DNA of 64,000 bases, taken from positions 1,231 to 65,230 of the forward strand of contig DHVE01000053.1 of the NCBI GenBank assembly GCA_002412495.1. The letters run 5' to 3'. This document shows positions 9,161 to 40,223 of the stretch, piece by piece. The notes under the pieces were generated by a model, which saw only the letters and a program-made list of their open reading frames with translations, was not told the DNA's origin and made no database searches. This stretch comes from Betaproteobacteria bacterium UBA5216 (GTDB taxonomy: Bacteria; Pseudomonadota; Gammaproteobacteria; Burkholderiales; SG8-41). The first letter of the stretch is position 1, and each line of letters starts with the position of its first letter. The position numbers and the translations under genes were made by a program.

Positions 9161-9180
9161 TGAACATCGGGGAGAAAACC

Positions 9181-22127: not shown

Positions 22128-23219
22128 CTACGGCTTGCGTATACGCCCCGAGGAGAGGTTTTCAAGCGTTTGCAGACAACTGATGATTTCGCGCGATACC
22201 GCGGACAGTGATACCTGCTTGTCAACCGCGCCTATTTCAAATGCCACGCGCGGCATGCCATACACCACACAGCTGCCGGCGTCCTGCCCAATGGTCATGG
22301 CGCCAGCCTGCTTCATGTGCAACAGGCCCTGGGCCCCGTCCGTACCCATGCCGCTGAGAATCACGCCGACGGCATGCCGCCCCGCTTGCTGCGCCACGGA
22401 ATCAAACAGCGGGTCCACCGAGGGCCGGTGCCCATTCAGCAGCGGGCCGTCATTGAGCAACGTAATCCATCCACTGACGCCGCGCCCGAGTTTCAGATGC
22501 TGATTCCCAGGCGCAATGTAAACATGCCCGGGATGAAGAATATCGCCTTGCGAGGCTTCTTTTACCCTGAGTGCGCACATCGAATTCAGACGCGCGGCAA
22601 ACAGCCGCGTGAAGGGTTGTGGCAAGTGCTGCACGATCAGCACGGGCGGCACGCTTTCGGGCAATCCTTGCAGCACCGTTGTGATTGCTTCGATGCCCCC
22701 GGTGGAGGCGCCTATGGCGATCACCGCATTGCGAGCCGCCATCCCCAGGGTTACCGACGGTTGCGCCGACGCAGATTGGCTCCCCGCCCAGCCCCGGCCC
22801 GCGATCTGTGGCCCCGCCGCCGCCGCGATGCGCACCTTGCTTACGATGTCACTGGCGAACTGGGAGATCAGCGTGTTGCTCGTCTGCATCGCGGGCTTGG
22901 TGACAAAATCCACCGCGCCCAATTGCAATGCGCGCAATGTCGCCTCGCCGCCCGCCACGGTCAGCGTTGAGACCATGACCACCGGCATCGGGCGCAGGCG
23001 CATGATTTTTTCGAGAAAGGTCAGGCCATCCATGCGCGGCATCTCGATGTCGAGCAATACCACGTCGGGCGAAAGCGCCTTAATTTTTTCGCGCGCGTCA
23101 AACGGATCCTGCGCCGTGCCAGCCACCATCATGTCGGATTGCGCATTGACAAATTGCGCGATCAGCTCGCGCATGACCTGCGAATCGTCAACGATGATGA
23201 CACGCGTTTTCGCCGCCAC
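22128..23219 (-). CDS. cheB: Protein-glutamate methylesterase/glutaminase CheB
   Basis: 363 aa. REC domain (VIIVDDSQVMRE...DVVLLDIEMPRMDG) plus an esterase domain (IGASTGG, GMGTDGA). Confidence 0.9.
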   Translation of the reverse strand: MAAKTRVIIVDDSQVMRELIAQFVNAQSDMMVAGTAQDPFDAREKIKALSPDVVLLDIEMPRMDGLTFLEKIMRLRPMPVVMVSTLTVAGGEATLRALQLGAVDFVTKPAMQTSNTLISQFASDIVSKVRIAAAAGPQIAGRGWAGSQSASAQPSVTLGMAARNAVIAIGASTGGIEAITTVLQGLPESVPPVLIVQHLPQPFTRLFAARLNSMCALRVKEASQGDILHPGHVYIAPGNQHLKLGRGVSGWITLLNDGPLLNGHRPSVDPLFDSVAQQAGRHAVGVILSGMGTDGAQGLLHMKQAGAMTIGQDAGSCVVYGMPRVAFEIGAVDKQVSLSAVSREIISCLQTLENLSSGRIRKP

Positions 23220-23222
23220 GGC

Positions 23223-23849
23223 TTAGTCCTCGAACAATTCCACGCGGCTGCTGATCGATTTTTTCTCGATCTCGACGGCATAGGCGCGCTCGCGATCAAT
23301 CAGCGTATCGTTGTGCAACTGGCGCAGTTCCTTCACCAGCACCCGGCCCGATTCGACGAAGAAATACACCTTGCGGGCGTGATTGCCGCCGACGTCTTTT
23401 GCCACGACGGAAATGCCTTCGCGGTTCAGGTAAGCCAGCGCGAACTCCGCGTTGCGCGCACCGACATCGCTCATGCCGGGCAGCACGCGCCCCGCCCCGA
23501 ACACCTTGGCCACCAACCGGCCGCGGTGAGCGCCCATCGTCAACAAATTGTTGATCAGCATCTCCATCGCGTGCGCGCCATAACGCGCCGGCTCGCTCAC
23601 CACTGACTGCGAACCCGAACGGTCGGGCAGCATGAAATGATTCATGCCGCCAATGCGGGAAACCGGGTCCATCAGGCACACCGAAACGCACGATCCGAGC
23701 ACCGTCACGATCAGGATATTGCGCTGGCTGGCATATAACTCACCGGGCGCTATTTTCGCTGCGTGCATCGCGAAATGCGAATCGTAATACAAACCCGGGC
23801 TGTCATTTTCAAGATTGGGAAACGCGGTCCCGCGCGGCTTTTCGGTCAT
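23223..23849 (-). CDS. cheD: Chemoreceptor glutamine deamidase CheD
   Basis: The track ORF extends to 24059. I prefer the ATG at 23849 (MTEKPRG...), which makes an ATGA overlap with the cheR stop. LGSCVSVCL and GGMNHFMLP motifs. Confidence 0.85.
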   Translation of the reverse strand: MTEKPRGTAFPNLENDSPGLYYDSHFAMHAAKIAPGELYASQRNILIVTVLGSCVSVCLMDPVSRIGGMNHFMLPDRSGSQSVVSEPARYGAHAMEMLINNLLTMGAHRGRLVAKVFGAGRVLPGMSDVGARNAEFALAYLNREGISVVAKDVGGNHARKVYFFVESGRVLVKELRQLHNDTLIDRERAYAVEIEKKSISSRVELFED

Positions 23850-24697
23850 GGGTATCCTAAACGCGCCGCAGCCTGCGATGCATCGCTCGCGACGCGATAA
23901 GTCGTTGCGCCCAGCGGGGTGAACAAATCCTTTGCATTGAAAAATGCCTCTGAATGTCCGGCAAACAACAAGCCATGCGGTTGCCGCAGCAACGGCACAA
24001 AACGCTTGAGTATCCGGTACTGTGTTTCTTTGTCGAAATAGATCATGACGTTGCGACAAAAAATGGCATCAAACTGTCCTTCAATGGGCCATTCGGCCTG
24101 CATCAGGTTGAGCATGCGGAATTGAATGCCGCGCTTGAGATCGTCCTTTACTTTAACAAGCCCTTGGTAACTGCCATCGCCGCACAAGAAATATTTTTTC
24201 AACTGCGCCGCGTCCATCCCCTCGACCTTCTCGCGCTCGTAGATGCCGCGCTCGGCGCCTTGCAATACGGTGGTGTTGATGTCCGTGGCGAGGATGCTGA
24301 CCGGCACCTGTGAATCCTCCATGTATTCCCGGCAGGTAATCGCAATCGAATAGGGCTCTTCGCCCGACGCGCAACCGCAGCTCCATATGCGAGCCGGCCG
24401 GGGCGCCGCAGGCAATACCTGGTCCGCCAGAATACGAAAATGATGACGTTCGCGGAAAAAACTCGTCAGATTGGTGGTCAGTATATTGATAAACCGAGTC
24501 CACTCGTGCTGCCCCGCGTTATCCAGGTAATCGAGATAGGCGCGCACGGACTCCAGTCCGAGCCGGCGCAACTCCCGCGTCAGGCGGCTGTACACCATTT
24601 CTTTGCGCGTATCGCCCAAATGTATGCCGGCGATACGATACAGATGGTCCGCCACCCGCTCGTAATCCGATTGTTCGTATTTAAACTCCTTTGACAC
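23846..24697 (-). CDS. cheR: Chemotaxis protein methyltransferase CheR
   Basis: 283 aa. TSFFRERHHF and IWSCGCASGEEPYSIA SAM-binding motifs. Confidence 0.9.
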   Translation of the reverse strand: MSKEFKYEQSDYERVADHLYRIAGIHLGDTRKEMVYSRLTRELRRLGLESVRAYLDYLDNAGQHEWTRFINILTTNLTSFFRERHHFRILADQVLPAAPRPARIWSCGCASGEEPYSIAITCREYMEDSQVPVSILATDINTTVLQGAERGIYEREKVEGMDAAQLKKYFLCGDGSYQGLVKVKDDLKRGIQFRMLNLMQAEWPIEGQFDAIFCRNVMIYFDKETQYRILKRFVPLLRQPHGLLFAGHSEAFFNAKDLFTPLGATTYRVASDASQAAARLGYP

Positions 24698-24754
24698 CGT
24701 TATACGCTACTCAATCCTGGTAATCCTGTGCGCCCGCCGACCCTGTGTCCCGCG

Positions 24755-25246
24755 TTACGATGCCACTTTCTCGATCAGCTGCAGGTCTTCGCTGCTCATC
24801 AGGCGCTCGATGTCCACTACGATCAGCATGCGCCCCTCGACGGTTGCCATGCCGGAGATGAATTCCGTGTTGATGGTGGAACCAAAGCGCGGCGCTTCGC
24901 GAATTTCTTCCAGCGGAACCGCGATGACGTCCGATACACTGTCCACCACCACGCCTATCATTTTTTTATTTAAATTCAATATGATAACTATGGTTGTTGC
25001 ATCATAGCTCACGTTCGCAAGACGAAACTTGATGCGCAAATCCACGATCGGCACGATATTGCCGCGCAGGTTGATCACACCTTTGATGAAGTCGGGGGTG
25101 TTGGCAATAGACGTTACGGTGTCATAGCCACGTATCTCCTGCACTTTGAGTATATCGATGCAGTACTCTTCCTGGGCCAGCCGGAACGTCAGAAACTCTT
25201 TTTTTACCGCGGCACGCGCCGCATCGTCTGCTCGAACATCACTCAC
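24755..25246 (-). CDS. cheW: Chemotaxis coupling protein CheW
   Basis: 163 aa. The FLTFRLAQEEYCIDILKVQEIRGY pattern is typical of CheW. Confidence 0.9.
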   Translation of the reverse strand: MSDVRADDAARAAVKKEFLTFRLAQEEYCIDILKVQEIRGYDTVTSIANTPDFIKGVINLRGNIVPIVDLRIKFRLANVSYDATTIVIILNLNKKMIGVVVDSVSDVIAVPLEEIREAPRFGSTINTEFISGMATVEGRMLIVVDIERLMSSEDLQLIEKVAS

Positions 25247-25318
25247 TTGAACCTCCTGTATTTCTTCGCATGGTTACGCCAATACGCTATTAAGCTGATA
25301 CGTTAGTAGGCCGAACCG

Positions 25319-27343
25319 TCAGACCGCCACCACCCTGGGCGCATCCACGACTTTCGGAGCGCCCCGATGCTGTTCCTTGATGGATGCATGCTGCTTTACG
25401 ATTTCAGTGACATCCAGAATTAACGCCACCCTGCCGTCGCCCAAAATGGACGCGCCCGCCATGAAATCGACTTTCCGGTAATTCGCTTCGAGGCTCTTGA
25501 TCACCACCTGATCCTGGCCCAGCAGTTCATCCACCTGAAGTGCGATGGTGCGGTTTTCAACTTCCAGCACCACCAGAACCGACTGCTCCTGCGACGCCGT
25601 GTCCGGCAGGGCGCAAACGTCCGTGAGTTTCAGGATCGGTATATATTCGCCACGCAAATGAATCACGTGACCTTGCCCCACCACCGATTGGACCTGCGTG
25701 GCCGACACCTGCAGGCACTCGCGTATAAACGTAATGGGAATGATGTAGCGTTCATCGGCCGCTCCGACGATCATGCCATCCACGATCGCCAGCGTCAGCG
25801 GCAGATTGATCGTGAACGTCGTGCCCTTGCCCAGCGCCGAGGTGATATCGAGCGAACCGCCCAGTTTGCGCACGTTTTGGCTGACCACGTCCAAGCCCAC
25901 GCCCCTGCCCGATACGCTGCTCACTTTTTGCGCGGTGGAAAACCCCGGCTGCAAAAGCAACGCGAACATCGAAGCTTCGTCGAATTCACCTTCGGCTATC
26001 AATCCGATTTCCACCGCACGCCGGCGCACCAATTCAGGATTGATGCCACGCCCATCGTCCACCACCGTAATCACGAAGCGTCCGCCGCGGTGTTCAGCGT
26101 GTAACGACAGCGTGCCCTTGGCCGGTTTGCCGGCGGCCAGCCGGTCCGCGGGCAATTCGATGCCATGATCCAGCGCATTGCGTACCAGGTGTGTCAGGGG
26201 ATCCACCAATTGCTCAATGACGCTCTTGTCGAGTTCAGACTGTTCGCCGGAAATCTTTAGCTCGACGGCCTTGCCCAATTGCAAACCGAGATCGCGCACC
26301 AGGCGCGGGAACCGGCCAAACACGTGATTCACCGGCATCATGCGGATAGCCAGTATGCGTTCCTGGATATCCTGCACATTGCGTTCCAGTTGTGCAAAAA
26401 CGGAGACCGCGCGCGCATCCTTGATTGCGTCGAGATGCTGGGTCGATTGCTTGAGCATGGTATGCGTGATCACCAGCTCGCCGACCAGATTCACTAGGTC
26501 ATCGATTTTGTCGGTGCGCACGTGCATGGTCACCAGACCAACCTCGCGGCGCGCATCCGGCGAAAAATCCTCGGCGCGGCGCGCCGGTCTGGGCGCCGAC
26601 GGAGACTCGAGCATCACCGGCTCGGCAACCGGCTCGATTTCCAGCGCGCAGCAATTCGATACCCATTCGAATACGTCGCGGATGTCACCGATGGTAGCTT
26701 CGGTTTCCAATGAAATGCGCCACGCCAGATAGCAAGTTGTCGGCACGAATGTCCGCACGTCCGGCAGCGCGGATAAATCGACGATGCAACGCACCGTCCC
26801 GAGATGCGCCAGTTCCTCGATAAAGCGAGCGGGATCGTTGCCGCTGTGAAAAAAATCCTGCGCCGGACGAAACACGATCACATAGGCTTGCTTGGTTCGC
26901 GCAACCACCGTCTCGCCCGCGACCGCCTGCCCGCCAGCGGTCGCACCGCCAGTGCCGGCACGCAGCAACAACTGCAATTCCCTTACGATGCCAGCGCCCG
27001 CCGACGCATCGACCGGCTCCTGCGCCTCGGAAGCGAAGATCCAGTTACGCAGGCAATCCACGCCTCGCAGCAGCACGTTGGTGCATTCGGGAGTTGCCTG
27101 TGCCGTACCTTGACGGAGACGGTCCAGCATGGATTCCATCTCGTGCGCCAGTTCGGCGATGACGCCAAATCCCAGGCTACCCGCGGACCCCTTCAGCGAA
27201 TGTACTGCGCGGAAAATGCCATCCAGGGTTTCCTTGCTGTGCCCATGCTGTTCGAGCCGCAGCAAAGCCTGCTCCACGCTATCAAGGCCTTCGAGGCTCT
27301 CGGCAAAGAAGGTTGCGTGAAAACGGGAAAGATCAAGGCTCAT
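25319..27343 (-). CDS. cheA: Chemotaxis histidine kinase CheA
   Basis: 674 aa. Hpt (FRAVHSLKGSAGSLGF), N box (LVRNALDHGIE), G1 (DDGRGI), G2 (GRGVGLDVV) and a C-terminal CheW-like domain. Confidence 0.9.
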   Translation of the reverse strand: MSLDLSRFHATFFAESLEGLDSVEQALLRLEQHGHSKETLDGIFRAVHSLKGSAGSLGFGVIAELAHEMESMLDRLRQGTAQATPECTNVLLRGVDCLRNWIFASEAQEPVDASAGAGIVRELQLLLRAGTGGATAGGQAVAGETVVARTKQAYVIVFRPAQDFFHSGNDPARFIEELAHLGTVRCIVDLSALPDVRTFVPTTCYLAWRISLETEATIGDIRDVFEWVSNCCALEIEPVAEPVMLESPSAPRPARRAEDFSPDARREVGLVTMHVRTDKIDDLVNLVGELVITHTMLKQSTQHLDAIKDARAVSVFAQLERNVQDIQERILAIRMMPVNHVFGRFPRLVRDLGLQLGKAVELKISGEQSELDKSVIEQLVDPLTHLVRNALDHGIELPADRLAAGKPAKGTLSLHAEHRGGRFVITVVDDGRGINPELVRRRAVEIGLIAEGEFDEASMFALLLQPGFSTAQKVSSVSGRGVGLDVVSQNVRKLGGSLDITSALGKGTTFTINLPLTLAIVDGMIVGAADERYIIPITFIRECLQVSATQVQSVVGQGHVIHLRGEYIPILKLTDVCALPDTASQEQSVLVVLEVENRTIALQVDELLGQDQVVIKSLEANYRKVDFMAGASILGDGRVALILDVTEIVKQHASIKEQHRGAPKVVDAPRVVAV

Positions 27344-27367: not shown

Positions 27368-28681
27368 TCAAAATTCCTTCCAGTCGCCATCGTCTCTGGA
27401 GCCGCCGCGCGGCGCCGACGCTAGGCTGGCGGCGGCAACAGCCGGCCCCGCTGAACGGACGGCGACCGCCACGGCGGCTGCTGGTTCAGGCGCGCGGCCG
27501 GCCGCGCCGGACGTTCCGGACGTTCCAACCGTACCGGGCGCAGCGGCGCGCCGGGAAGTACCAGCGACGTTACGCCGGTGATCGAGAAGAACCCTGTCGT
27601 TCTCGTCAATCTTGAACACGCGCGTCATTTCGCGCAGGCGCTGTGCCTGCGTGCGCATGGAATCGGCCGCGGCCGTCGCCTGCTCCACGACTGCAGCATT
27701 CTGCTGCACGACCTCATCCATCTGAAGAATCGCCAGATTGATCTGGTCGATACCGCTGGATTGATCAGCCGAGGCATTGCTGATTTGGTCTATGATTCCA
27801 CTGAGGTTTGCGACGGAATCCACGATTTCATTCATCGTCTTGCCGGCGTTTTCAACCAGCCGGGTGCCCGCATCGACCTTTTCAACGGAGTTGCCGATCA
27901 ATACCTTGATCTCCTTCGCGGCCTCCGCGGATCGCTGCGCAAGGCTGCGAACCTCGGAAGCCACCACCGCAAACCCCCGGCCTTGTTCGCCGGCACGCGC
28001 GGCCTCAACGGCGGCGTTCAACGCGAGAATATTTGTCTGAAATGCGATGCCATCGATAACGGAAATAATATCCGAAATCTTGCGCGAGCTTTCCTGGATA
28101 TCGTTCATGGTCAGCACCACATCGCCCACGACTCTTCCGCCGTTTGCCGCCACCACATTCGCGCTTTTTGCCAGTACATTTGCCTTGCGCGCGCTCTCGG
28201 TGTTTTCCTTCACCGCGGCAGTCAACGCTTCCATGCTGGACGCGGTTTGCTCCAGGGTCGAAGCCTGTTCTTCCGTGCGCTGAGACAGATTGTTATTGCC
28301 ACTCGCCACTTCGTTGGCCGACGTGGCGATGGCTTCCGCGCTGTCGCGAATATCACTCACCATGCGCGTGAGATTTTCATCCATGGTCTTAAGCGCCAGC
28401 ATCAGTTTGCCGAATTCGCCGCGCCCATCGGTTTCTATCGTCACGGTCAAGTCGCCGGCGGCCACCCGATTTGCCAGCGACACCGCCGTCGCGAGCGGTA
28501 TGCTAATGGCGCGCAAGGTAACTATCCACATGACCATCAGCAGCATGATCGTTACCACGACCAGCCCCACCATCACATTACGCGGCCCACCCTGCAAGTG
28601 CATGATACCCACCACCGCCATGCCCAGAATCAGCGCAAGCAAAAACGCAACGCCCAGCCGCAAACTGCTCTTAACGGTCAT
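27368..28681 (-). CDS. Methyl-accepting chemotaxis protein (two TM helices, no periplasmic domain, HAMP, C-terminal DWKEF)
   Basis: 437 aa. Canonical hairpin tip ([39 protein letters not shown]) and the [15 protein letters not shown] block. The two TM segments are about 10 residues apart. Low-complexity tail ending in DWKEF. Confidence 0.9.
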
Positions 28682-28718: not shown

Positions 28719-29084
28719 CTAAGCCGGCAGCACCTTGCGCAACACGTTCAGCAGCGCTTCCGGATCAAAGGGTTTGACTATCCAGCCCGTCGCGCCCGCC
28801 GCGCGCCCCTTGGATTTCATTTCCGGTTGCGATTCGGTGGTCAACAGTATGATCGGCACAAATTTGTACTCGGGCAACTTGCGTAACTCCGCGACCAGTT
28901 CGATCCCCGTGCGCCCCGGCATGTTCACGTCCGAAATCACCAGATCAAACCGTTGTGTTTGCGCCAGCGCGAGCGCCTCGTCGGTGTTGCCGGCTTCGGC
29001 GACCTTGTGTCCAGCCGAGGCCAGCGTGAAATTGACCATCTGCCGCATGGTCATGGAGTCATCAACAATCATGATATTCGACAC
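28719..29084 (-). CDS. cheY: Single-domain response regulator CheY
   Basis: 121 aa. IMIVDDS..., DLVISDVNMPG, WIVKPF. Confidence 0.9.
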   Translation of the reverse strand: MSNIMIVDDSMTMRQMVNFTLASAGHKVAEAGNTDEALALAQTQRFDLVISDVNMPGRTGIELVAELRKLPEYKFVPIILLTTESQPEMKSKGRAAGATGWIVKPFDPEALLNVLRKVLPA

Positions 29085-29100: not shown

Positions 29101-30450
29101 CTAGAATAACTCTACGTCTACTTTTTGTACTTTACCGGGCGCCAAGTCCTCGCGAACCGCGATACGCGATTCACCCTCCGAAGCCGAGGCGCCATCCGCG
29201 GCACGCGCCAAACCCGCGGCGCGCGTATTGGATTCGGAGTCCGAAAGGGACTCCGCCGCCTTCGCCAACAGCGGCGCCTTGATGTGCTGAAGTTTTTGCT
29301 GGGTAATATCCTGATACTGCATCGCGACGATAATCTGATTGATATCGTTGCGCACATCCTTGCCCAGCGAGGTGATCTTCTCCAGCGTGGTGGTGACCTC
29401 CCGCGCCTTTTCCATCGTGGCGATGTTGAGCTGCGACACATCTACCTTGGCCTGCACGGCCGCCAGCCGCACATTGTCGCTGGATTTACTCAACTCTTCG
29501 TAAGTGCCGCCCATCACTTCACGGATCTTCTCCAGACCATCGCGCATGCGGCGCGTCAACTCATGTGCCGATGTGCTGGTCTCGCGAATGCGGTCTGCAA
29601 TTTCAACAAACCAGCGGCCATCGGCATTGGCGTCGCGGTTGGCCGCCACCGTGGAATCGAGCGCCAGCTTGCGAATTCGCGCCGCCATGTTGCGCAATTC
29701 GTCCAGCATTTCGTCTATTGCCAGTGAATGTTCTCGCACCACATCCTGATGGCGTGACATTTCTTCGGATGCCTTGGAAAAATCCATCATGCGGCTGGTA
29801 ACGTTATCCAGTTGCCGTTCGTACGCCGTGATGAAATCAGGCAACGACAACCAGGCAGATCCACCAGCCCCGTCGGCCGAACTGCTCTTTAGCAGCCGCA
29901 CGGCACTGTCCATTTGCTGCCCGGTCTTGTCCATGATGACGCGAAAGCTCTTGCCGATCTTCGCGGCAGCCGCCTCGGATTGCTGAGTCACGTCGTCCAG
30001 AGACGCGCGCGCATGCCGGATGCTATCTCCCGCGATATGCGACGATTCCATCCATTGGTTCAGCAAACCTTGCATCAGCGCCATCGACTGCGCGGTGGCA
30101 ACCGCATCACCCGTATTGCGCACCGGCGTGTCCGTCGCCTGCGCGGGCGCTGATTCCGCGCGGCTGGCCATCACATGGTAAATCAGGAATAACGACACCA
30201 CCGAAAACACCAGCGAAACGCCCGCAACCCACAACGGCACCGCCCACACACCCCATATCCAGGGAAGCAGCACGGCCGCCGCGCACAGCGCCAGCGCCTT
30301 GCCTTTTCCCTTATCCTGCCGCTGCGCCCGCTCCTTGTTTTTTTCTGTTTCGGGCTTTTCCACCTTTATGGCGCCGCCACCAGCACTGGCGTTTCCACCA
30401 CGGGACGTCCCACCACCCTCCGGCTCGCTGAGATCGAAATCGACGCTCAC
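29101..30450 (-). CDS. Degenerate MCP-like membrane protein (no canonical signalling tip)
   Basis: 449 aa with a GTG start. Gly/Lys-rich N-tail and two adjacent TM helices. The long helical region retains recognisable but diverged versions of the MCP tip (LALDSTVAANRDANADGRWFVEIADRIRE versus [30 protein letters not shown]) and of the QMDxxTQQNA block (AMQYQDITQQKLQ). Confidence 0.6.
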   Translation of the reverse strand: MSVDFDLSEPEGGGTSRGGNASAGGGAIKVEKPETEKNKERAQRQDKGKGKALALCAAAVLLPWIWGVWAVPLWVAGVSLVFSVVSLFLIYHVMASRAESAPAQATDTPVRNTGDAVATAQSMALMQGLLNQWMESSHIAGDSIRHARASLDDVTQQSEAAAAKIGKSFRVIMDKTGQQMDSAVRLLKSSSADGAGGSAWLSLPDFITAYERQLDNVTSRMMDFSKASEEMSRHQDVVREHSLAIDEMLDELRNMAARIRKLALDSTVAANRDANADGRWFVEIADRIRETSTSAHELTRRMRDGLEKIREVMGGTYEELSKSSDNVRLAAVQAKVDVSQLNIATMEKAREVTTTLEKITSLGKDVRNDINQIIVAMQYQDITQQKLQHIKAPLLAKAAESLSDSESNTRAAGLARAADGASASEGESRIAVREDLAPGKVQKVDVELF

Positions 30451-30770
30451 GTATCCCCTCCCAATACCGCGTCTATCGCCAGCAGCGAAAGCAACTCGCT
30501 CAAGCGCTCCGACGGATTATTAATCCGTACTGATTTCCCTTGTTCACGCGCACGCACCACGGCGACAGCCAGCAGCTGTGCCAGGGCCGTATCCGGTCGA
30601 GCCACCGCGGACGCATCCAGTTCCACCACTGCATGCGCTTGCAGGCGATCGCGAATCTCTTTCCAGATTTCGTCGATTTCGCGTATTCCGGCGTCCGCGG
30701 CAAGAGCGTATGAATTAGTAGGCACTTTTATTATGACTGACGATGATCCAGCACAGTTTGGTGGATGCAC
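30447..30770 (-). CDS. STAS domain protein (anti-sigma-factor-antagonist-like)
   Basis: 107-aa ORF with a GTG start (the start is uncertain). VVELDASAVARPDTALAQLLAVAVVRAREQGKSVRINNPSERLSELLSLLAID resembles a STAS/SpoIIAA-like fold pattern. Its stop overlaps the next gene's start (GTGA). Confidence 0.6.
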   Translation of the reverse strand: MHPPNCAGSSSVIIKVPTNSYALAADAGIREIDEIWKEIRDRLQAHAVVELDASAVARPDTALAQLLAVAVVRAREQGKSVRINNPSERLSELLSLLAIDAVLGGDT

Positions 30771-30957: not shown

Positions 30958-32076
30958 TTACTTGCCGCGCATCTCGGCCATCGAGCGCGCATACTGCCCA
31001 TCGGAGCGCTTTAACGCTCGGGTAACCGCCTTGGTCGCGCCAAACGTAGGTATCACCGCCGAGTGCTTGCCGGCGCCGCCAATCACGGCAATCAGCAGAT
31101 TGTCAGCGTTGTGTATCATGGGCACTGGCGCGTCCATTCCGGCATTTTTGTAGACAGAGGCAAATGCCACTCGAAAGCGCCGTTCAATGTTCTCTTTGGA
31201 AAACGTCCCCAGCGGAAGCGTCGCGTGTTGTGCGATGAATTGCTTGGCTGCCCGCTTGCTGATGCCGTCATTGGCGATAGTCGCGGCGTGTTCCGGCCCC
31301 ATCACCACCAGCGGCATGGCGTCGGGATAATAGATGTCGTTCGAGCCGGTTGAAATCAGGGTGCCCGCGATGGTCTTGAGGATGCCTTCACCGCTGATGC
31401 TTTCATGATCGTTCACGTTATGCGGGCACTCCCCGCCGACCACCGTGACGCAAGTGGCTTCACGGGGGAAACCCCGCTCCACATGCAGCGGCACCCAGGG
31501 GTTTCCTGCTTCGTTTTCAGCCACGCAATAGGAATATTTGTTCGGCCCGCCGAATGTGGACATATCGCCAAGCGCGGGGATGGCACCGCCAATATTCAAT
31601 AAAATCAATCGGATAGCGCGCCCTATCGTGGCATTGCTATGAGTCCCGGGACCAAAGGCATTGTGCCCGCTGTTCATGCCCAGTTCTTTCGCCCCGGGGC
31701 CATTGACGATGACCAGCGGTGAACACATATGTGTGGTCGCCTGAATCCCATACAGGTTAAAGGCCTCGTCGCACATGGCCTCGACCGCCAGAATAATCAA
31801 CGGAAAATATTCCGGCTTGCAACCGGCCATAACCGCATTCGCCGCCAAACGCACGGGCGTAGCCTCGCCATAACGCGGCGCTACCTTGCCCACCGGCTCA
31901 TTCCACGGGCGATCACAGTACTCCAGCATCGCGGCGACTCGTTCCTCCGTGGGCGGTATCAGCGGCAGGCCGTCTCCCCATCCCTTTTCCAGATAAAGCG
32001 CGTTTATTGAAAAGAAATCGTCCTTGGCTTCCAAGCTAGCATCCGGGGCTTTTAACAATGCCGAAAGATCGTTCAC
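30958..32076 (-). CDS. Conserved hypothetical protein, translationally coupled to the UGSC selenoprotein
   Basis: 372-aa ORF with coding-like composition. ATGA overlap with the upstream gene's stop. No family recognised (GWGDGLPLIPPT, several Cys). Confidence 0.65.
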   Translation of the reverse strand: MNDLSALLKAPDASLEAKDDFFSINALYLEKGWGDGLPLIPPTEERVAAMLEYCDRPWNEPVGKVAPRYGEATPVRLAANAVMAGCKPEYFPLIILAVEAMCDEAFNLYGIQATTHMCSPLVIVNGPGAKELGMNSGHNAFGPGTHSNATIGRAIRLILLNIGGAIPALGDMSTFGGPNKYSYCVAENEAGNPWVPLHVERGFPREATCVTVVGGECPHNVNDHESISGEGILKTIAGTLISTGSNDIYYPDAMPLVVMGPEHAATIANDGISKRAAKQFIAQHATLPLGTFSKENIERRFRVAFASVYKNAGMDAPVPMIHNADNLLIAVIGGAGKHSAVIPTFGATKAVTRALKRSDGQYARSMAEMRGK

Positions 32077-32621
32077 TTCGAATGCTCCTTGATCAACTTC
32101 ACAAACTCAGGGATGGCCACTCCCGCGCGCCCTTCGACTTTTTCCAGCGAAATTCCGCCCAGCGGATGCGGTATTACGATCAATGGCAAATCCGGCACGC
32201 CAAACACGCGCGATTGCGCCTTACCCAGTTTCAGGAAGGGATCCGTACAGATTACCGCCGTTACCAAACCGCGTTTACGTAACTCTGACATATCGTGGAC
32301 ACTCCACGATGTGCAGGAACCTCAATCCGCCATGGCGCTGATGACGCAATCCGCCTGGGCGGTGAATTCATCCAGCACATTTTTCTCGGCCGGAATCGAT
32401 GGCGACGGCTTCCGGAGCGCCACCACGGAAGCCACCTTCATTTGCGCCTTCACCCCTTCCACAATGAACTTCAGCAGGTGGTCTGCGTTGCCTTTGCTGT
32501 TATCGAGAATGCCGAGCCGTATGCCGTCAACGGATAAGTCACGTTGTCGCCCGGTCGCAATTGCCGCTGGCGGCGGCGCTTCGGGCACCACCAATCTCAC
32601 CATTGCCATGGTATTGCTCAT
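32073..32621 (-). CDS. UGSC family selenoprotein (in-frame TGA at 32322-32324 read as Sec); the ORF track splits it into 32322..32717 and 32073..32291
   Basis: The TGA and the downstream ATG at 32291 are 33 nt apart, so they are in frame. Read-through gives ...DCVISAMAD-U-GSCTSWSVHD-MSELRKRG.... There is a hairpin 11 nt downstream of the TGA. The preferred start is the ATG at 32621 (MSNTMAMV), preceded by GGAGG. Confidence 0.7.
32292..32310 (-). promoter_or_regulatory. Candidate bacterial SECIS hairpin
   Basis: The minus-strand RNA AUCGUGGA-GUG-UCCACGAU forms a perfect 8-bp stem with a G/U-containing apical loop. It starts 11 nt after the UGA. Confidence 0.5.
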
Positions 32622-32886
32622 GAAATTACCTCCAAACTGTCGGGAAGCTGCCGACTTTATCGTATGCGCTGCCCTGCGGCAAACCCGTAAGGCGTTGACC
32701 CAAAAATGCACTGTCAATCAAGAGATTAGCTCCGCCAAGCCGCGTTTGGTGGCCCAATACCCCGATGTCTTTATTTCTAATAGCATTTGAACATGTCTCA
32801 GGATATCCTGTACCTGTTTTCAATAACCAACCGGCAACAAATGACCGTGTATCCATCGGCCACGAATACTTGCACTAAAGGGTCTG

Positions 32887-35544
32887 GTGCATACGCTATC
32901 CCGCAAGGAGCGACCCGCTCCCGTCTTGATCTGCGGCGACAAGGTGCTCGAATTGCCTGAGCGCCTGCTGCGAAATTCCATTGCAAGGAAGGTCTCCCTA
33001 GGCATCGCCACTATCGTCTTGGCGACTGCTACCGCAATGCTGATAACGCACTACGTATCGTCCGTCGCGGTACATTCGTTGCAGGAATCTCACGATCTCG
33101 TGCAGGCCATGACCAGCGCGGCCAGCGACATGGAGTTCGATACGGTATCGGGCGGAATAAGTGTTTTGCAATATCTCCAAACCGGTGATCCGGCTTATCG
33201 GGACGCCTATCAGCGGCACAGTACGCACTTTCGGCAATACTCGGACCGGTTGCTCGCTCTGGCTCGATTCGAACAGTGGCAAAAACCCGCACGCGCCATA
33301 GCCAGCCAATTCAATGAGCTGGACCGCATCAGCACCAGCCTCATTGCGCTGCCGGTAGCCGGCGACGGCACCAGCCATCCCTCGGCCGTGCCACTGCAGG
33401 ACCATCGCGCTCAACTGGACAGAATGTCGGTTCTGCAGCAACAGATAGTTACCACCATAGCCACCCAGCTCAAGCCCACACTCAAACTGTACACCATTGA
33501 AGCCGCCGATACCGCAAGCCGGCAGATGCTGCGCGTCCTGCTGCTGGCCGGCGGTACGTCGCTGGGCCTGCTTTTATTATCATTGCTGGCGGCCCGTTAC
33601 GTACGGCGCTCGATTATTGAACCGGTGCGAAAACTCTCGGCCAGTACCGACGCCATTGCGCGTGGGGATCTCGACCATCGCGTCATTCTCGCCGGCAACG
33701 ATGAATACTCCGACCTGGCGAAAAACTTTAATTACATGATCGATCAGTTGCAGAGCACCACGGTCTCCCGGGCGCTGCACGAGGAACAGGAAATACGCCT
33801 GCGGACGCTGCTGGACGGTGTCTACGACTACGCCATTTTTTCCGTCGATGCGCATGGTTTTGTCAATCACTGGAACCAGGCAAGCACGCGCATCCTCGGC
33901 TATGACGCCGCCGACATGCAAGGCGTGTCGTTTGCGCGAATCTTCGCGGACAAGCAGGATGCGCGGCTGGCGCGCGACGAGGGACTCGCGGCCATCGCGG
34001 AAGCAGGCCGCTTTGAAACCGACAGCAGCCTGACTCGCAAGGATGGCACAACGTTCCACGCCAACGTTGTCGTCACGCCATTAACGGCAGTGCACAGTGA
34101 AATCAAGGGATATACCGTGGTGGTGCGCGATATCACGGAACGCGTGAAAGCCGAGCGACACATTGAACAACTCGCCACCAAAGACCCGCTGACTGGTTTG
34201 TCGAATCGCGGCATGCTGATTGAACAGATGCACACGGCCATTGTCCGGGCGGCGCGCGCGCGAACCCAACTGGCGGTTCTGTTTATCGATCTCGATCACT
34301 TCAAGGCGGTCAACGATACCTTGGGACACGCGGCCGGCGATGATTTATTGCGGGAGTGCGCGAGACGCCTGACGGAATGCGTGCGCGAGCTCGACTCGGT
34401 GGCGCGCCTCGGGGGCGACGAATTCGTGGTGCTATTGACCGACATTATCGACACCAGCATCGTTGCTCCCATCGCGCAACGCATGCTGGATTTACTCACC
34501 ACCCCCTACGAACTGCACGGCCATAGCGCCCAAACGTCCGCCAGCATCGGCATTTGTTTCTATCCCATGGACGGTAACGACGTTACTACCTTGATGAAAA
34601 ACGCCGATATCGCGATGTACCATGCCAAGGAACTGAACCGCAACAATTTCCAGTTTTACGCCGAAGAGATGAACCAGCGCATATTGCAACGGCTTCAGCT
34701 GGAACGTGAATTGCGCGCTGCCGTGCAAAATGGCGAATTCGTACTGCATTACCAGCCGCAAGTCGTCGTGGCCACCGGAAAAATTCGCGGCGTCGAGTCG
34801 CTGGTGCGCTGGCAGCATCCCTCGCGAGGGCTGTTATCTCCCGCCGAATTCATCTCGGTAGTGGAGGAAACCGGCTTGATCCTGCCGTTGGGTGAATGGA
34901 TTTTGAATGAAGCCTGCCGCACGGTTAAAGCCTGGCGCAAAACGGGTGTCAACGTGCCTTATGTTGTCGTCAATGTGTCCGCGGCACAATTGGGCGACGG
35001 CTTGGTGACCGCCGTCAGAAACGCGTTGATTGAGCACGAAATGGAGCCTGGCTGGCTGATGCTCGAAATCACCGAAACCATGCTAATGGCACACGTGGAA
35101 GAAGCCATTGCCATCCTGCGGCGCATTCGTGAGTTGGGTATACGAATCGCGATGGATGATTTCGGTACTGGCTATTCATCGCTCAGCGTACTGCAGCGCC
35201 TGCCACTCGACATGCTTAAAATCGACCGCAGTTTTGTCGTCACCATAGACGACGACGCCGGCAACGCGCGCGCCGTGGCTATTATCGGCGCCATTATCGC
35301 CATTGCCAAAGAGCTCAACCTCGGTGTCGTTGCCGAAGGCGTCGATTCAACCACGCAGCTGGCGTTCCTCCGCACACTGAACTGCGATACCTATCAAGGA
35401 TATCTTTTCAGCAAACCCGTGGATGCCGCCGCGATTGAAAGGTTATTCGCGGCGCCCGTAAGATCCGTGCTCGAAGATCATAACGGGCGCGCGATTACCA
35501 TGACAACCAAAGTTTCCATGGAATTGCCGGTCGATGCGCATTGA
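32887..35544 (+). CDS. Membrane sensor diguanylate cyclase/phosphodiesterase (periplasmic domain-HAMP-PAS-GGDEF-EAL)
   Basis: 885 aa. Two TM segments flank a periplasmic region of about 160 aa. HAMP (IARGDLDHRV), PAS, GGDEF (RLGGDEFVVLL) and EAL domain blocks (ESLVRW, DDFGTGYSSL, KIDRSFV). GTG start, uncertain. Confidence 0.85.
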   Translation: MHTLSRKERPAPVLICGDKVLELPERLLRNSIARKVSLGIATIVLATATAMLITHYVSSVAVHSLQESHDLVQAMTSAASDMEFDTVSGGISVLQYLQTGDPAYRDAYQRHSTHFRQYSDRLLALARFEQWQKPARAIASQFNELDRISTSLIALPVAGDGTSHPSAVPLQDHRAQLDRMSVLQQQIVTTIATQLKPTLKLYTIEAADTASRQMLRVLLLAGGTSLGLLLLSLLAARYVRRSIIEPVRKLSASTDAIARGDLDHRVILAGNDEYSDLAKNFNYMIDQLQSTTVSRALHEEQEIRLRTLLDGVYDYAIFSVDAHGFVNHWNQASTRILGYDAADMQGVSFARIFADKQDARLARDEGLAAIAEAGRFETDSSLTRKDGTTFHANVVVTPLTAVHSEIKGYTVVVRDITERVKAERHIEQLATKDPLTGLSNRGMLIEQMHTAIVRAARARTQLAVLFIDLDHFKAVNDTLGHAAGDDLLRECARRLTECVRELDSVARLGGDEFVVLLTDIIDTSIVAPIAQRMLDLLTTPYELHGHSAQTSASIGICFYPMDGNDVTTLMKNADIAMYHAKELNRNNFQFYAEEMNQRILQRLQLERELRAAVQNGEFVLHYQPQVVVATGKIRGVESLVRWQHPSRGLLSPAEFISVVEETGLILPLGEWILNEACRTVKAWRKTGVNVPYVVVNVSAAQLGDGLVTAVRNALIEHEMEPGWLMLEITETMLMAHVEEAIAILRRIRELGIRIAMDDFGTGYSSLSVLQRLPLDMLKIDRSFVVTIDDDAGNARAVAIIGAIIAIAKELNLGVVAEGVDSTTQLAFLRTLNCDTYQGYLFSKPVDAAAIERLFAAPVRSVLEDHNGRAITMTTKVSMELPVDAH

Positions 35545-36536: not shown

Positions 36537-37181
36537 TCAGAGCGATGTCAGTCCTTCGCGCACGGCATACTTGGTCAATTCCGCTACCGTGCGCAAGTCA
36601 AGTTTGCGCATCATGTTGCGCCGATGCGCCTCCACGGTGCCTTCCGTGATGCCCAGTCGGCGGGCAATCGCCGTGGTGCGCACACCGTCGGCCACCAGCC
36701 GCAGCACTTCCCGCTCTCGTGCACTCAGCGGCGACACATTGGTCGCTGTTGTGTCGGCATCCGGCAAAAACTGCCCCATCACCAGGGAGGTAACTTCCGG
36801 GCTGAGAAAGTTTTGCCCCGCAGCCACCGCACGTATCGCCCGCGGCAACTCCGTCGCCGCGGCGGCCTTAGAAACATAGCCCGCGGCACCCGCCTTTAAC
36901 GACTCCTGCACGAAACGCTTATCCATGTAAGCGGACAGCACCAGAATCCGCATTTGCGGCATTTCCTTATATAGCGTCTGCGCGACCTGCACACCATTGA
37001 CGCCGGGCATTGCGATATCAAGCACCAGCACATCTGGCCTGCAATCACGGGCAAGCGTCATCGTCGATGACCCATCTTCGGTCACCCCCGCAATTTCCAT
37101 GTCTGGCTCGTTTTTTAATATCAGTATCAGCGCATCGCGCAGCATTCGATGATCGTCTGCCAGCATGACTCGAATGGACAT
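36537..37181 (-). CDS. NarL/FixJ family two-component response regulator
   Basis: 214 aa. REC (VMLADDHRMLRD...DVLVLDIAMPG) plus LuxR HTH (LSAREREVLRLVADGVRTTAIARRLGITEGTVEAHRRNMMRKL). Confidence 0.9.
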   Translation of the reverse strand: MSIRVMLADDHRMLRDALILILKNEPDMEIAGVTEDGSSTMTLARDCRPDVLVLDIAMPGVNGVQVAQTLYKEMPQMRILVLSAYMDKRFVQESLKAGAAGYVSKAAAATELPRAIRAVAAGQNFLSPEVTSLVMGQFLPDADTTATNVSPLSAREREVLRLVADGVRTTAIARRLGITEGTVEAHRRNMMRKLDLRTVAELTKYAVREGLTSL

Positions 37182-37421: not shown

Positions 37422-40223
37422 TTACTTGCATTCATGCAATGTCGTCTGCTCCGTCAGCGGAATCGAGAGTGTCACCACGGTGCCCTCCCCTGCAGCACTC
37501 CAGACTCTCGCGCTGCCCCCGATATAACTGATGCGCTCGCGCACACTGACCAGTCCCAGCCCGCTCCCCGGAATCCGGGTATCGAACCCAATCCCCTCGT
37601 CGCTTACGGTAACGACTATCGCATCATCAGCACGTTGCGTATCCACATGCGCGCGTTTCACTCCGGCGTGCCGTACCACGTTGATCAGCAATTCTCGTAT
37701 CAGCCGAAACGTAATGGATTGACTCAATTCTGGAAGCGGCTTGGCCTCGCCATCATCACTCACGCCCACGCGCAACCCGTACTGCCGGAACATTTCATCC
37801 GCCAGCCAATCCAGCGCGGGCGACAGGCCCAGTTGCCGCAACACCGGCGGACTGAGATCGAATTCCATGGAACGGATAGCGGCATTCGTGTCATCAATGA
37901 TGCGGGTGATTTCACGCAAACGATCATGCACTTGGCTGGCTTTACCATCCTCAAGGGTCGATGTCAATTTGATCCGCGCCAAATTAAGCAATTGCCCGAT
38001 CCCATCATGCAAGTCGTGAGCGATGCGGGTGCGTTCGGCTTCGAGCAGTTCCGCTTGGCGTGCGGACAACTGGCGCAACTTGTCGTTGGAATCGCGCAAT
38101 GCCTGTTGCGCGATGACGCGGTCGTTGATATCGCGGCACACGGCCTGATGGTAGGCAACACGATTGTTCCTTATAAAGGCATTCACATGCTGACCGACCC
38201 ATACCACCCTGCCGTCCTTGCCGATCGCCGGAAACTCGCGATAGGTGCGCGGTGTCCGCGCTCTGAAATGCTCGCGATAAAACGAATCAACCTCCGCGCG
38301 ATAATCAGGATGAACAAAATCGAGATAACAGCGTCCCAGCAACTCATCGCTGCGGTAACCGAGCATCCCCGCCGCGACATCCGTATTGACATAAGTGAAA
38401 TACCCCGACGGATTGGTCCGATAAATCAGATCACTCGCCTGTTCCACCAGCTCGCGATATTGCTCTTCGCGCTCCCGCAATTTTTCCAGTTCCGCGAGCT
38501 TGCGGGCCGATATGTCCCGCGAGATGGTCAATAAACTAATTACCTTCCCGGAGGCATCCAGTATGGGCGTCACCTCCGCCTCACGCCATGTGCCGGGATC
38601 CACATAGGCATTGCGCTCGAACACCATTGCACGGCCCGCCGAAATGACCTGCTTCTCCTGAGCGTCAATTCGCACCGCGACCTCTTGCGGACGAAGCTCA
38701 AAGACGGTTCTTCCGATGATTTTTTCTTCGGGGAGCCCCATTTGCATTTGCGCGGCACGATTCAGCATCAGAAAGCGGCCCTGCGTATCCTTCAGGCGAA
38801 CTTCCTCCGGCATCGCATCGAGCAAGGTGCGGAAACGTTGCTCCGATTCGCGCAGCGCGATTTCCGTTTCCTTACGCTCGGTGATGTCCTGATGCATGGC
38901 CACCAGACGCGCTGCCTTGCCGTCCTGGCCCGCGAACATCACCTGAAACGACTCAACATGCCGCACGACCCCGTCCGTGCGCACCATTCGATACTGTACG
39001 GTATGCCCCTCCAGGGTTTCGAGTGAACGGTTGCGCACCGCAAGAAAATGCGCCCTGTCGTCCGGATGCACCTGATCCTTATAGAAGGGATACCTGCCGC
39101 TCTCCGGCAAGGGCCCACGCAGCCACTCGGGCGAATCGCTAAAGGTGAGTTCATCGCGCTGAACATCCCAGTCGATGACGATGATTTTCGCGGCCGCGCG
39201 CGCGACACGAAACCGTTCCTCGTTTTCACGCAGCTTTTGCTCGCTCGCGCGCAGCGCCGCGGTGCGCGCGGTCACCTGCGCATCGAGTTCCGCATGGGCG
39301 CGCCGCAATTCATCCACCACCCGTTGCCGGTGGCGGTTAATGGCCACGAGCAACAACGCGCCCGCGCTCGCCAGCACCAGAAAAGTCTGCACCAGCAACG
39401 CGCTTTCTTCACGTGTTCGTCCCGCCGCGGAATAGGGGCCCAGCTCGAGGGCCGTGAAGTGCAGCGCCATCATGGCCACCACGGTGACTGTCACCACCGT
39501 CCCGGGCAATCCGAACCGCAAAACCGCCCACAACACGGGTGGCAGCAGCAGGAAGACCAGCGGCAGGTTCGTATGAAAGATGAAATACGTCGACGCCAGT
39601 AGCAACGCCATCAACACGACCGCCTCCAGACAGCGCTGCATCGCCACGCGGCCCTGCGTGACGCGACGCTGCGCGAGCATCAGCACTGGCGGGGACACGA
39701 GCAGGCCACCGAGACTATATGAAGTCCAGTCCAGCAGCAGCTCGAATGCGGACACCGGCTTGGCTTCGAAAACGTGCAAAATCCACTCTACGATGGCGCT
39801 TATCGCCGCCCCTGGCAGTACGGTCAGTACGACCAAAGCAAACATGCCACGAGGCGCGTCGAAACGGTACGGGGAATCACTGACCCGGCGAATCAACCAT
39901 GCCGCGCATAGCATGCCTGAAATGTGTCCCGCCGTATCGAACAGCGCATGCGTGACAGTGTCGTGGCAGATCCATATTTCGGCAGCAAACCCCGCGCACA
40001 AAGCGACTATCGTCCATCGCGGCCAGCACCGCGGCTCGCTCAACAGCAACAAGGCTAGATAAATTCCGCTGGAAAATGCGCCACCGACGCCGTGACCTTG
40101 CGCCAGCTTCAAATAATCCCCCAGCGCCGCGGTCGCAAGACTTGCCACCGCGAAGAAACACAATCGGCTGGCGCCGCACGTCACGGCAAACCATTCCCGC
40201 GTATCACGGCATCCGCGGCCCAC
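37422..40223 (-). CDS. Sensor histidine kinase (MASE1-like membrane domain, multiple PAS, HisKA_3, HATPase)
   Basis: 933 aa. Polytopic N-terminus and about 3 PAS-like modules. H-box AHDLHDGIGQLL and G2 GSGLGLVSVRER. The GTG start at 40223 overlaps the upstream gene by 43 nt. An alternative GTG at 40184 gives a GTGA overlap. Confidence 0.85.
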   Translation of the reverse strand: MGRGCRDTREWFAVTCGASRLCFFAVASLATAALGDYLKLAQGHGVGGAFSSGIYLALLLLSEPRCWPRWTIVALCAGFAAEIWICHDTVTHALFDTAGHISGMLCAAWLIRRVSDSPYRFDAPRGMFALVVLTVLPGAAISAIVEWILHVFEAKPVSAFELLLDWTSYSLGGLLVSPPVLMLAQRRVTQGRVAMQRCLEAVVLMALLLASTYFIFHTNLPLVFLLLPPVLWAVLRFGLPGTVVTVTVVAMMALHFTALELGPYSAAGRTREESALLVQTFLVLASAGALLLVAINRHRQRVVDELRRAHAELDAQVTARTAALRASEQKLRENEERFRVARAAAKIIVIDWDVQRDELTFSDSPEWLRGPLPESGRYPFYKDQVHPDDRAHFLAVRNRSLETLEGHTVQYRMVRTDGVVRHVESFQVMFAGQDGKAARLVAMHQDITERKETEIALRESEQRFRTLLDAMPEEVRLKDTQGRFLMLNRAAQMQMGLPEEKIIGRTVFELRPQEVAVRIDAQEKQVISAGRAMVFERNAYVDPGTWREAEVTPILDASGKVISLLTISRDISARKLAELEKLREREEQYRELVEQASDLIYRTNPSGYFTYVNTDVAAGMLGYRSDELLGRCYLDFVHPDYRAEVDSFYREHFRARTPRTYREFPAIGKDGRVVWVGQHVNAFIRNNRVAYHQAVCRDINDRVIAQQALRDSNDKLRQLSARQAELLEAERTRIAHDLHDGIGQLLNLARIKLTSTLEDGKASQVHDRLREITRIIDDTNAAIRSMEFDLSPPVLRQLGLSPALDWLADEMFRQYGLRVGVSDDGEAKPLPELSQSITFRLIRELLINVVRHAGVKRAHVDTQRADDAIVVTVSDEGIGFDTRIPGSGLGLVSVRERISYIGGSARVWSAAGEGTVVTLSIPLTEQTTLHECK

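Follow-up and report, generated by a model that had tools for sequence, protein, structure and literature searches.

A probable McpA-like protein with a rewritten receptor tip and its possible CheZ-like function in a betaproteobacterial chemosensory cluster

What does a receptor-shaped protein do in a chemosensory (che) cluster when the receptor tip that contacts the kinase has been rewritten? The question is raised by the 64,000-nucleotide stretch of contig DHVE01000053.1 (Betaproteobacteria bacterium UBA5216) analysed here, called the window below. The open reading frame (ORF) 29101..30450 on its minus strand encodes a 449-residue product, named X449, in a cluster that also encodes a canonical methyl-accepting chemotaxis protein (MCP). 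X449 very probably belongs to the McpA-like family (CttP/PA0180, VCA1088/Mlp44, SO_2117/McpAso, MEALZ_2878), as a divergent betaproteobacterial member. We tentatively suggest that it may be a membrane-anchored CheZ-like phosphatase of phosphorylated CheY (CheY-P), built on a re-specified receptor scaffold and co-translated with a STAS protein.

Origin and conservation of X449

The X449 gene begins with a GTG that runs into the stop codon of STAS directly upstream (GTGA); the 4-nt overlap suggests that STAS and X449 are translationally coupled. Promoter and terminator scans stayed at chance level. The AlphaFold2 (AF2) model, built on 27 homologues, has a mean predicted local distance difference test (pLDDT) score of 65 and reproduces what an earlier note on this DNA had read from the letters, namely a Gly/Lys-rich N-terminal tail, two transmembrane (TM) helices and a helical remainder. 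Residues 1-48, the Gly/Lys-rich tail, are disordered, the TM hairpin is formed by helices 37-67 and 73-99, and these are followed by a helix (111-188), a break (189-202), a helix (203-272), a turn (273-277), a long helix (278-423) and a disordered tail beyond residue 423. The TM hairpin proper (51-99) has a loop of about 5 residues, with P63, W64, W66, P72 and W74 of its turn invariant in the subfamily alignment, and no Pfam domain was detected in X449. Helix 111-188 carries the conserved residues V154, E159, A161, F169, K175 and Q179. A Foldseek search of the model against PDB returned generic long coiled-coil hairpins (SMC, Rad50, a Tsr fusion, TM1143), none at E<=0.001. The protein is probably a dimeric helical-hairpin bundle.

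We detected 74 close homologues of X449. The 79 related loci in named genome assemblies come almost entirely from betaproteobacterial metagenome-assembled genomes (MAGs; Burkholderiales, Usitatibacter, Nitrosomonadales), with one cultured strain, Aromatoleum toluclasticum ATCC 700605 (our locus L021). HMMER with the subfamily profile retrieved 2911 representative clusters at E<=1e-3, of which 756 reach E<=1e-10. The pairwise ratio of nonsynonymous to synonymous substitution rates (dN/dS) between X449 and seven orthologues is 0.12-0.22; it is lowest in the hairpin 203-360 including the rewritten tip (0.00-0.16; tip 262-290 by itself, 0.02-0.16) and 0.08-0.19 in the motif region described below, and the N- and C-terminal linkers are relaxed. 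The gene is real, conserved and under purifying selection. Since constraint peaks in the hairpin, tip included, the tip is re-specified rather than eroding, and the label "degenerate" used in the earlier note is misleading.

MCPsignal (PF00015) is matched neither by X449 (no Pfam match at E<=1) nor by any of the 27 subfamily members. BLASTP of X449 against the neighbouring MCP finds the correct register at noise level (E=1.6), and the X449 subfamily profile reaches the same MCP with E=0.008. We also aligned X449 with 40 more distant full-length matches, 15-37% identical to it (41 sequences, the wider family). The MCP ancestry of X449 is secure by transitivity only, because this wider family, homologous to X449, matches canonical MCPs in hhalign with E=4e-31 (probability 99.9%). 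The protein is thus MCP-derived and retains the scaffold of TM hairpin and helical hairpin, as supported by the family hhalign and the AF2 model.

Two blocks had been proposed by eye as diverged MCP hallmarks. The first, LALDSTVAANRDANADGRWFVEIADRIRE (262-290), is the MCP tip, for which phmmer against MCPs in PDB and hhalign give the same alignment: phmmer placed residues 240-317 on the tip of the Thermotoga MCPs 4jpb, 3ur1 and 3g6b (E=0.004-0.03). The second, AMQYQDITQQKLQ, was placed by hhalign on the same 13-residue MCP segment as before, and the BLASTP register agrees. The hhalign run, of the family profile with 31 canonical MCPs, paired LALDSTVAANRDANADGRWF with a canonical MCP segment of 19 residues and NQIIVAMQYQDITQQKL with one of 17. 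MQYQDITQQ, which had been taken for a diverged MCP block, is instead a family-invariant signature closer to the CheZ active site than to the MCP motif. The loss of EAARAGE and GRGF was confirmed, X449 having VAANRDANAD and GRWF, and the canonical CheA/CheW-contacting consensus of the tip is gone. The tip is identical to that of a canonical-tip relative at 14 of ~36 positions and keeps the residues equivalent to R388 and F396. Changed in X449 are I377K, N381D, E385A, V398E and E402R (Tsr numbering), at positions which we take to be trimer or CheW/CheA contacts.

The McpA-like family and its CheZ-like features

McpA-like receptors such as CttP/McpA (PA0180) and VCA1088 have a TM region and no assignable heptad class; their genes always lie beside ancestral stage 1-2 F7 clusters with STAS anti-sigma-factor antagonists and a serine phosphatase, and the proteins are dispensable for F7 array formation (PMC7184735). 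The same study reports that ancestral F7 clusters have no cheZ, that the C-terminus of P. aeruginosa McpA does not bind CheR, and that the family ends (Ortega 2020, Suppl. Table 12) in EVELF (PA0180, VCA1088), EIELF (SO_2117), DIELF (MEALZ_2878) or DVELF (Hhal_2159, Metme_2161) (PMC7184735). X449 ends in DVELF, identical to the last two. Papers on V. cholerae and Shewanella place McpA-like proteins in F6 arrays and describe effects on swimming, and the Shewanella mcpA-like locus carries the CrsA/CrsR partner-switch.

The wider family fits this description, its members being proteins of 350-460 residues with a canonical MCP tip, an [LM]QF[QE]DxxxQ motif and a C-terminal [DN][VI]ELF; PF00015 is matched by 33 of the 41 (best E 2.5e-38). 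Using a profile of the canonical-tip members we retrieved the McpA-like protein of Methylotuvimicrobium alcaliphilum 20Z (our P0353, 401 residues, tail DIELF). Its locus on FO082060.1 has the published stage-1 layout, cheY-cheA-cheW-aer2-cheW-STAS-cheR-cheD-cheB-mcpA-STAS, and a sister genome is alike. BLASTP aligns X449 with it at E=2e-12, colinear from residue 150 to the C-terminus (449), which is short of the 1e-30 BLAST cut-off that the published study applied to its PA0180 set; the X449 subfamily profile matches P0139, a close homologue of the M. alcaliphilum member, with E=3.5e-23. The neighbouring MCP (E=1.6) is much more distant, so that X449 very probably belongs to an old, separate family and is not a paralog of its neighbour as the earlier note had supposed.

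The sole invariant columns of the 41-sequence alignment are Q378, D381 and Q385, within [LM]Q[FY][QE]DxxxQ; the MCP tip is not invariant. D381 and Q385 are also invariant in the X449 subfamily alignment. Among 183 full-length family members the motif [LMIV]Q[FYW][QEHF]DxxxQ is present in 175, and 155 have an end of the type hydrophobic-acidic-L-F. The type member PA0180 would carry the motif too, judging from its close family members. D143 and Q147 are the catalytic residues of E. coli CheZ (1KMI). Around them CheZ has AQDFQDLTGQVI, to be compared with AMQYQDITQQKL in X449 (FQDLTGQ and YQDITQQ), and from the motif glutamine to the C-terminus there are 64 residues in X449 (Q385), 67 in E. coli CheZ (Q147) and 76 in the family median. 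The VELF tail of X449 sits behind a linker of low pLDDT.

CheZ is the model matched by most subfamily members, 21 of 27 with Pfam (best E=0.005) and 18 of 27 with NCBIfam Phos_CheZ (best E=1.3e-4), always at residues ~334-391. For hhalign we built a CheZ profile from enteric CheZ and three bona fide Nitrospira CheZ proteins from fetched loci; an enteric-only profile is too shallow (hhalign probability 1-7%), the E. coli CheZ homologues retrieved being all at least 79% identical. This profile was matched by the wider family (E=7e-5, probability 63%), by the short relatives described below (E=2e-4, probability 46%, 109 columns across both helices) and by the X449 subfamily (E=7e-4), as against E>=0.04 for reversed and 20 column-shuffled versions and E=0.29 for canonical MCPs. 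In the alignment made with the short relatives, helix 111-188 matches the N-terminal helix of CheZ, and the best PDB match of the short-form profile is chain Z of 1KMI, CheZ itself (E=0.013). A CheZ hidden Markov model (HMM) run over 4610 ORFs of 82 loci found, beyond the three training CheZs, 53 family members and a single ORF from outside the family, a shadow on the strand opposite a family gene; none of 89 other MCPs matched.

Some relatives have lost the MCP part. The proteins of loci L062-L073 (364-421 residues) have no recognisable tip; P0105, P0108, P0113, P0123 and P0124 (275-318 residues) are reduced to the TM hairpin and two helices, the N-helix and the motif helix, with a short connector between; and in Nitrospira proteins of 180-220 residues the TM anchor is also gone. 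In every one of them the N-helix still shows its V..QTE.A signature, and the QFQDITxQ motif is followed by a terminal V[ET]LF. Because the hairpin-deleted relatives retain N-helix, motif and tail, sequence comparison places the conserved function in a CheZ-like module, with the MCP hairpin as an accessory that is canonical, rewritten (X449) or absent.

In the Nitrospira loci (L079:5469-6149 and 8704-9306; L078, L081, L082) a canonical CheZ lies beside one cheY and a separate short QFQDIT/VTLF protein (180-220 residues) directly upstream of a second cheY-cheA. Each of the two CheYs thus has a CheZ-like partner of its own. In most clades a well-conserved cheY directly follows the mcpA-like gene (32 pairs of this kind). 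The exception is Usitatibacter, whose X449 homologue follows and overlaps a second cheW, not cheY.

Proposed function and competing readings

We suggest the following mechanism for X449. The TM hairpin, which has no sensor domain, would anchor the protein in the membrane, and the dimeric bundle would present D381 and Q385 on its surface. The C-terminal DVELF peptide, on a flexible linker of ~60 residues, would capture CheY-P made by the CheA of the cluster, as in CheZ, and the D381/Q385 pair would speed the hydrolysis of its aspartyl phosphate; the adjacent CheY is the proposed substrate. CheY signalling would then be ended at the membrane or the array; localisation or regulation would come from the rewritten hairpin and from STAS, with which X449 is co-translated. 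We infer CheY binding, catalysis and the role of STAS from the comparisons above, and the phosphatase reading as a whole is a tentative preference, held with some doubt.

Several observations weigh against it. The CheZ matches are all below the curated cut-offs (9.3 vs 30.7 bits for Pfam PF04344, 15.3 vs 350 for NCBIfam NF041271), the hhalign probabilities against CheZ are 27-63%, and the likeness lies mostly in one 7-residue motif that could be convergent or structural. The motif segment is positionally homologous to the canonical MCP block MDxVTQQNAA, itself with D-x3-Q. The conserved tail of X449 is ~5 residues, whereas the C-terminal peptide of CheZ is a longer amphipathic helix. Within the X449 clade constraint is strongest on the hairpin and weaker on the motif. 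The Nitrospira loci have a canonical CheZ besides the short motif protein, the coupling of the X449 homologue to cheW in Usitatibacter fits a receptor-like role, and the McpA proteins in the literature act as parts of (F6) arrays and have effects on swimming. CheY-F7 of Comamonas reportedly loses its phosphate rapidly by itself, which could make a phosphatase unnecessary.

A wider and more doubtful proposal is that the whole McpA-like family, including PA0180/CttP and VCA1088, might consist of receptor-shaped CheZ-type phosphatases. They would be built from a CheZ-like two-helix module (N-helix, QFQDxxxQ helix, and a VELF tail for CheY capture) with an MCP hairpin inserted in the loop, and the inserted hairpin would target the enzyme to arrays.

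The idea put forward in the earlier note was a pseudo-receptor that modulates the array, or an adaptor. Worked out as a non-catalytic rival, its rewritten hairpin would dock on the array, a dedicated CheW or the STAS protein, and the protein would modulate array activity or connect the output of the array to a STAS partner-switch. QYQD and the DVELF tail would then serve as binding sites. The constraint on hairpin 203-360 with its tip (dN/dS 0.00-0.16) agrees with this, as do the 4-nt overlap of STAS and X449, seen also in L085, the STAS genes flanking mcpA-like genes in F7 stage 1-2 clusters, CrsA/CrsR at the equivalent Shewanella locus, and the second cheW coupled to the X449 homologue in the Usitatibacter clade. 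However, the hairpin-less relatives keep motif and tail, so the conserved core function has no need of the hairpin; most other clades have no STAS gene next to the X449 homologue, and the invariant Q/D/Q triad and the CheZ-specific profile matches are left unexplained. We consider this explanation unlikely.

More improbable is a genuine, if odd, chemoreceptor that responds through its TM hairpin to a cue in the membrane or the cytoplasm (as suggested for CttP with trichloroethylene) and controls CheA by way of an interface co-evolved with CheW/CheA. The MCP homology via the family, the conserved PWxW...PxW turn, the retained equivalents of R388 and F396 and the published participation of McpA proteins in F6 arrays, with altered swimming, would suit a receptor. 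It is opposed by the loss of the tip consensus at most of the contact positions assumed above, by the missing MCPsignal match and HAMP domain, by the existence of hairpin-less relatives, and by the dispensability of McpA for F7 arrays and the failure of the P. aeruginosa McpA C-terminus to bind CheR (PMC7184735). Both the pseudo-receptor and the chemoreceptor are compatible with a phosphatase role.

An unexpressed decaying duplicate of the neighbouring MCP, to which the lost tip and the absent MCPsignal match could have pointed and for which the earlier note had expected no orthologs and a dN/dS near 1, was rejected on selection and orthology as practically impossible: dN/dS is 0.12-0.22 with the altered tip strongly constrained, orthologues occur in dozens of MAGs and in A. 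toluclasticum, the gene has a strong Shine-Dalgarno sequence and translational coupling, and X449 is closer to the McpA-like protein (E=2e-12) than to its neighbour (E=1.6).

X449 is new as a tip-rewritten betaproteobacterial variant of a known, functionally unexplained family. Within an incomplete body of literature, no paper turned up that describes QFQDxxxQ in McpA-like proteins or ascribes a CheZ-like or phosphatase activity to them; earlier proposals may exist outside it. In Pseudomonas, Vibrio, Shewanella and methanotrophs, McpA-like receptors have been conserved alongside ancestral F7 systems. What they do is an admitted puzzle: F7 arrays form without them, F6 arrays contain them, their C-terminus is strikingly conserved, and the F7 clusters that they accompany have no cheZ. 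The X449 variant is a natural dissection, with the tip rewritten, the whole hairpin deleted in relatives, and QFQDxxxQ and VELF kept. If the phosphatase reading is right, a function would be obtained for a whole family annotated "methyl-accepting chemotaxis protein" and a relation between receptor and phosphatase architectures would become visible. The family-wide version would supply the missing phosphatase of ancestral F7 systems and explain the conserved C-terminus. On that version, the series from canonical tip through rewritten tip (X449) and tipless proteins to the short Nitrospira forms would document the interconversion of a soluble or anchored phosphatase and a receptor hairpin, and might link MCPs and CheZ in evolution.

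The gene cluster and comparison with known systems

The cluster has the order STAS-X449-cheY-MCP(TM-HAMP-36H-DWKEF)-cheA-cheW-cheR-cheD-cheB (Table 1), and the same layout is found in L004-L016 and L085. It appears to be F7-type and stage-2-like, a class indicated by gene content and the 36H-like MCP and not by a CheA classifier. The true start of the STAS protein may be an internal GTG, giving ~92 residues. As the earlier note had asked, the pair of a STAS gene and a pseudo-MCP gene at the head of che clusters does recur. Of 12 close loci whose upstream sequence is available, 11 have it, and so do an Acidiferrobacterales locus and the F7 clusters of stages 1-2 in the literature (PMC7184735). 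In the Acidiferrobacterales MAG the STAS gene overlaps the mcpA-like start and cheY follows; its McpA-like protein keeps the canonical tip.

Table 1. Features of the X449 locus in window coordinates
Feature	Coordinates	Strand	Basis
X449 gene, tip-degenerate McpA-like protein	29101..30450	-	ORF; homologues; dN/dS
Shine-Dalgarno GGGAGGGG, 4 nt before the X449 GTG	30455..30462	-	read from sequence
TM hairpin, residues ~51-99, LPWxW...PxW turn, without periplasmic domain	30154..30300	-	invariant residues; AF2
Membrane-proximal helix 111-188	29887..30120	-	conservation; AF2; CheZ alignment
Re-specified MCP tip LALDSTVAANRDANADGRWFVEIADRIRE, residues 262-290, turn 273-277	29581..29667	-	phmmer, hhalign, AF2, dN/dS
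MQYQDITQQ, residues 377-385, Q378/D381/Q385 family-invariant	29296..29322	-	alignments; CheZ matches
C-terminal tail VDVELF, residues 444-449	29104..29121	-	family signature [DE][VIL][ED]LF
STAS_2 protein, anti-sigma-antagonist fold	30447..30770	-	PF13466 E=5e-12
CheY, directly downstream of X449	28719..29084	-	PF00072 E=8e-29
Canonical MCP: TM hairpin, HAMP, 36H-like signalling domain, DWKEF pentapeptide	27368..28681	-	ORF and profiles
cheA	25319-27343	-	Pfam
cheW	24755-25246	-	Pfam
cheR	23846-24697	-	Pfam
cheD (longest ORF, to 24059, overlaps cheR)	23223-~23855	-	Pfam
cheB	22128-23219	-	Pfam
cheA-cheW-cheR-cheD-cheB block, F7-type core	22128..27343	-	Pfam

The canonical MCP has two TM helices with a ~9-residue loop, hence no periplasmic sensor, and neither receptor-like protein of the cluster has an obvious ligand-binding domain. 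The CheZ HMM and a motif check found no CheZ match or motif in any other ORF of the window. The QQ in DITQQKL was considered as a CheD/CheB deamidation or methylation site and rejected on sequence inspection, the flanking small-residue consensus being absent. In the Usitatibacter-type che clusters (L001:6167-7492, L002:4431-5771) the gene for a Ser/Thr protein kinase fused to a cyclic nucleoside monophosphate (cNMP)-binding domain is flanked by cheW genes on both sides and shortly precedes the X449 homologue.

Upstream of the STAS gene, a 372-residue protein (30958-32076, minus strand) without a Pfam or NCBIfam match is 83-91% identical in 12 related loci, above the conservation of the che genes; its gene is probably a separate unit because a 187-bp gap parts it from STAS. 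On its other side it is abutted by a UGSC-family (seleno)protein gene (32077-32717, minus strand), the frame of which is open to 32077 and matches NCBIfam UGSC_fam upstream of an in-frame TGA (E=3e-9). This TGA (32322-32324), followed by GSC (...ISAMAD-U-GSCTSWSVHD...), is likely a selenocysteine codon at which ORF callers would split the gene. Downstream of cheB, after a gap of ~210 bp, a 237-residue protein without a family match (21203-21916, minus strand) is 56-65% conserved at the same position in five related loci, with a sigma-70-like match at 22025-21998. Farther out, large putative signalling proteins flank the locus, namely an 885-residue protein (32887-35544, plus strand) that has a PAS-GGDEF-EAL look by eye, and a 933-residue putative membrane PAS histidine kinase (37422-40223, minus strand) with an adjoining putative LuxR-type response regulator (36537-37181).

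Among known systems, the canonical MCP signalling domain (PF00015; the neighbouring MCP, Tsr, Thermotoga TM14 and TM1143) has in common with X449 the antiparallel helical hairpin, the residual tip likeness LAL[ND]..V.A.R....GR.F...A..[IV]R and a colinear C-arm. Unlike canonical MCPs, X449 has no PF00015 match, EAARAGE, GRGF, HAMP domain or NWETF-type pentapeptide, and the C-arm block of the canonical MCP is replaced by the QYQDITQQ motif.

McpA-like receptors resemble X449 in the N-terminal TM region without a sensor domain, in a heptad class that cannot be assigned, in length (~400-450 residues), in the position beside an F7-type cheY-cheA-cheW-MCP-cheR-cheD-cheB cluster and a STAS gene, in the non-pentapeptide C-terminus [DE][VIL][ED]LF (not x[HFYW]xx[HFYW]) and in the QF[QE]DxxxQ motif. 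X449 differs from the published members in its rewritten signalling tip, in its betaproteobacterial host (the family was described in Gammaproteobacteria), in having no adjacent serine phosphatase or kinase gene, and in its partner MCP, which is a TM-HAMP receptor and not the PAS-containing Aer2.

The alphaproteobacterial che operon of S. meliloti and A. fabrum, without a classical cheZ, also combines a STAS-only protein, the CheA-binding CheS, with a non-canonical DxxxQ protein, the small CheY phosphatase CheT (PMC12654446). No sequence relationship is claimed. CheT is small and soluble, unlike X449, and CheS adjoins cheY1 and is not coupled to a receptor-like gene.

CheZ (PF04344; b1881, 1KMI) is half as long as X449, which is membrane-anchored and has an MCP-derived hairpin between its two CheZ-like helices. 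The two proteins are alike in the long helical hairpin, in [FY]QD[IL]TxQ and its D-to-Q spacing of four residues, in an acidic/hydrophobic C-terminal peptide that ends in F at a similar distance, and in a gene that adjoins cheY.

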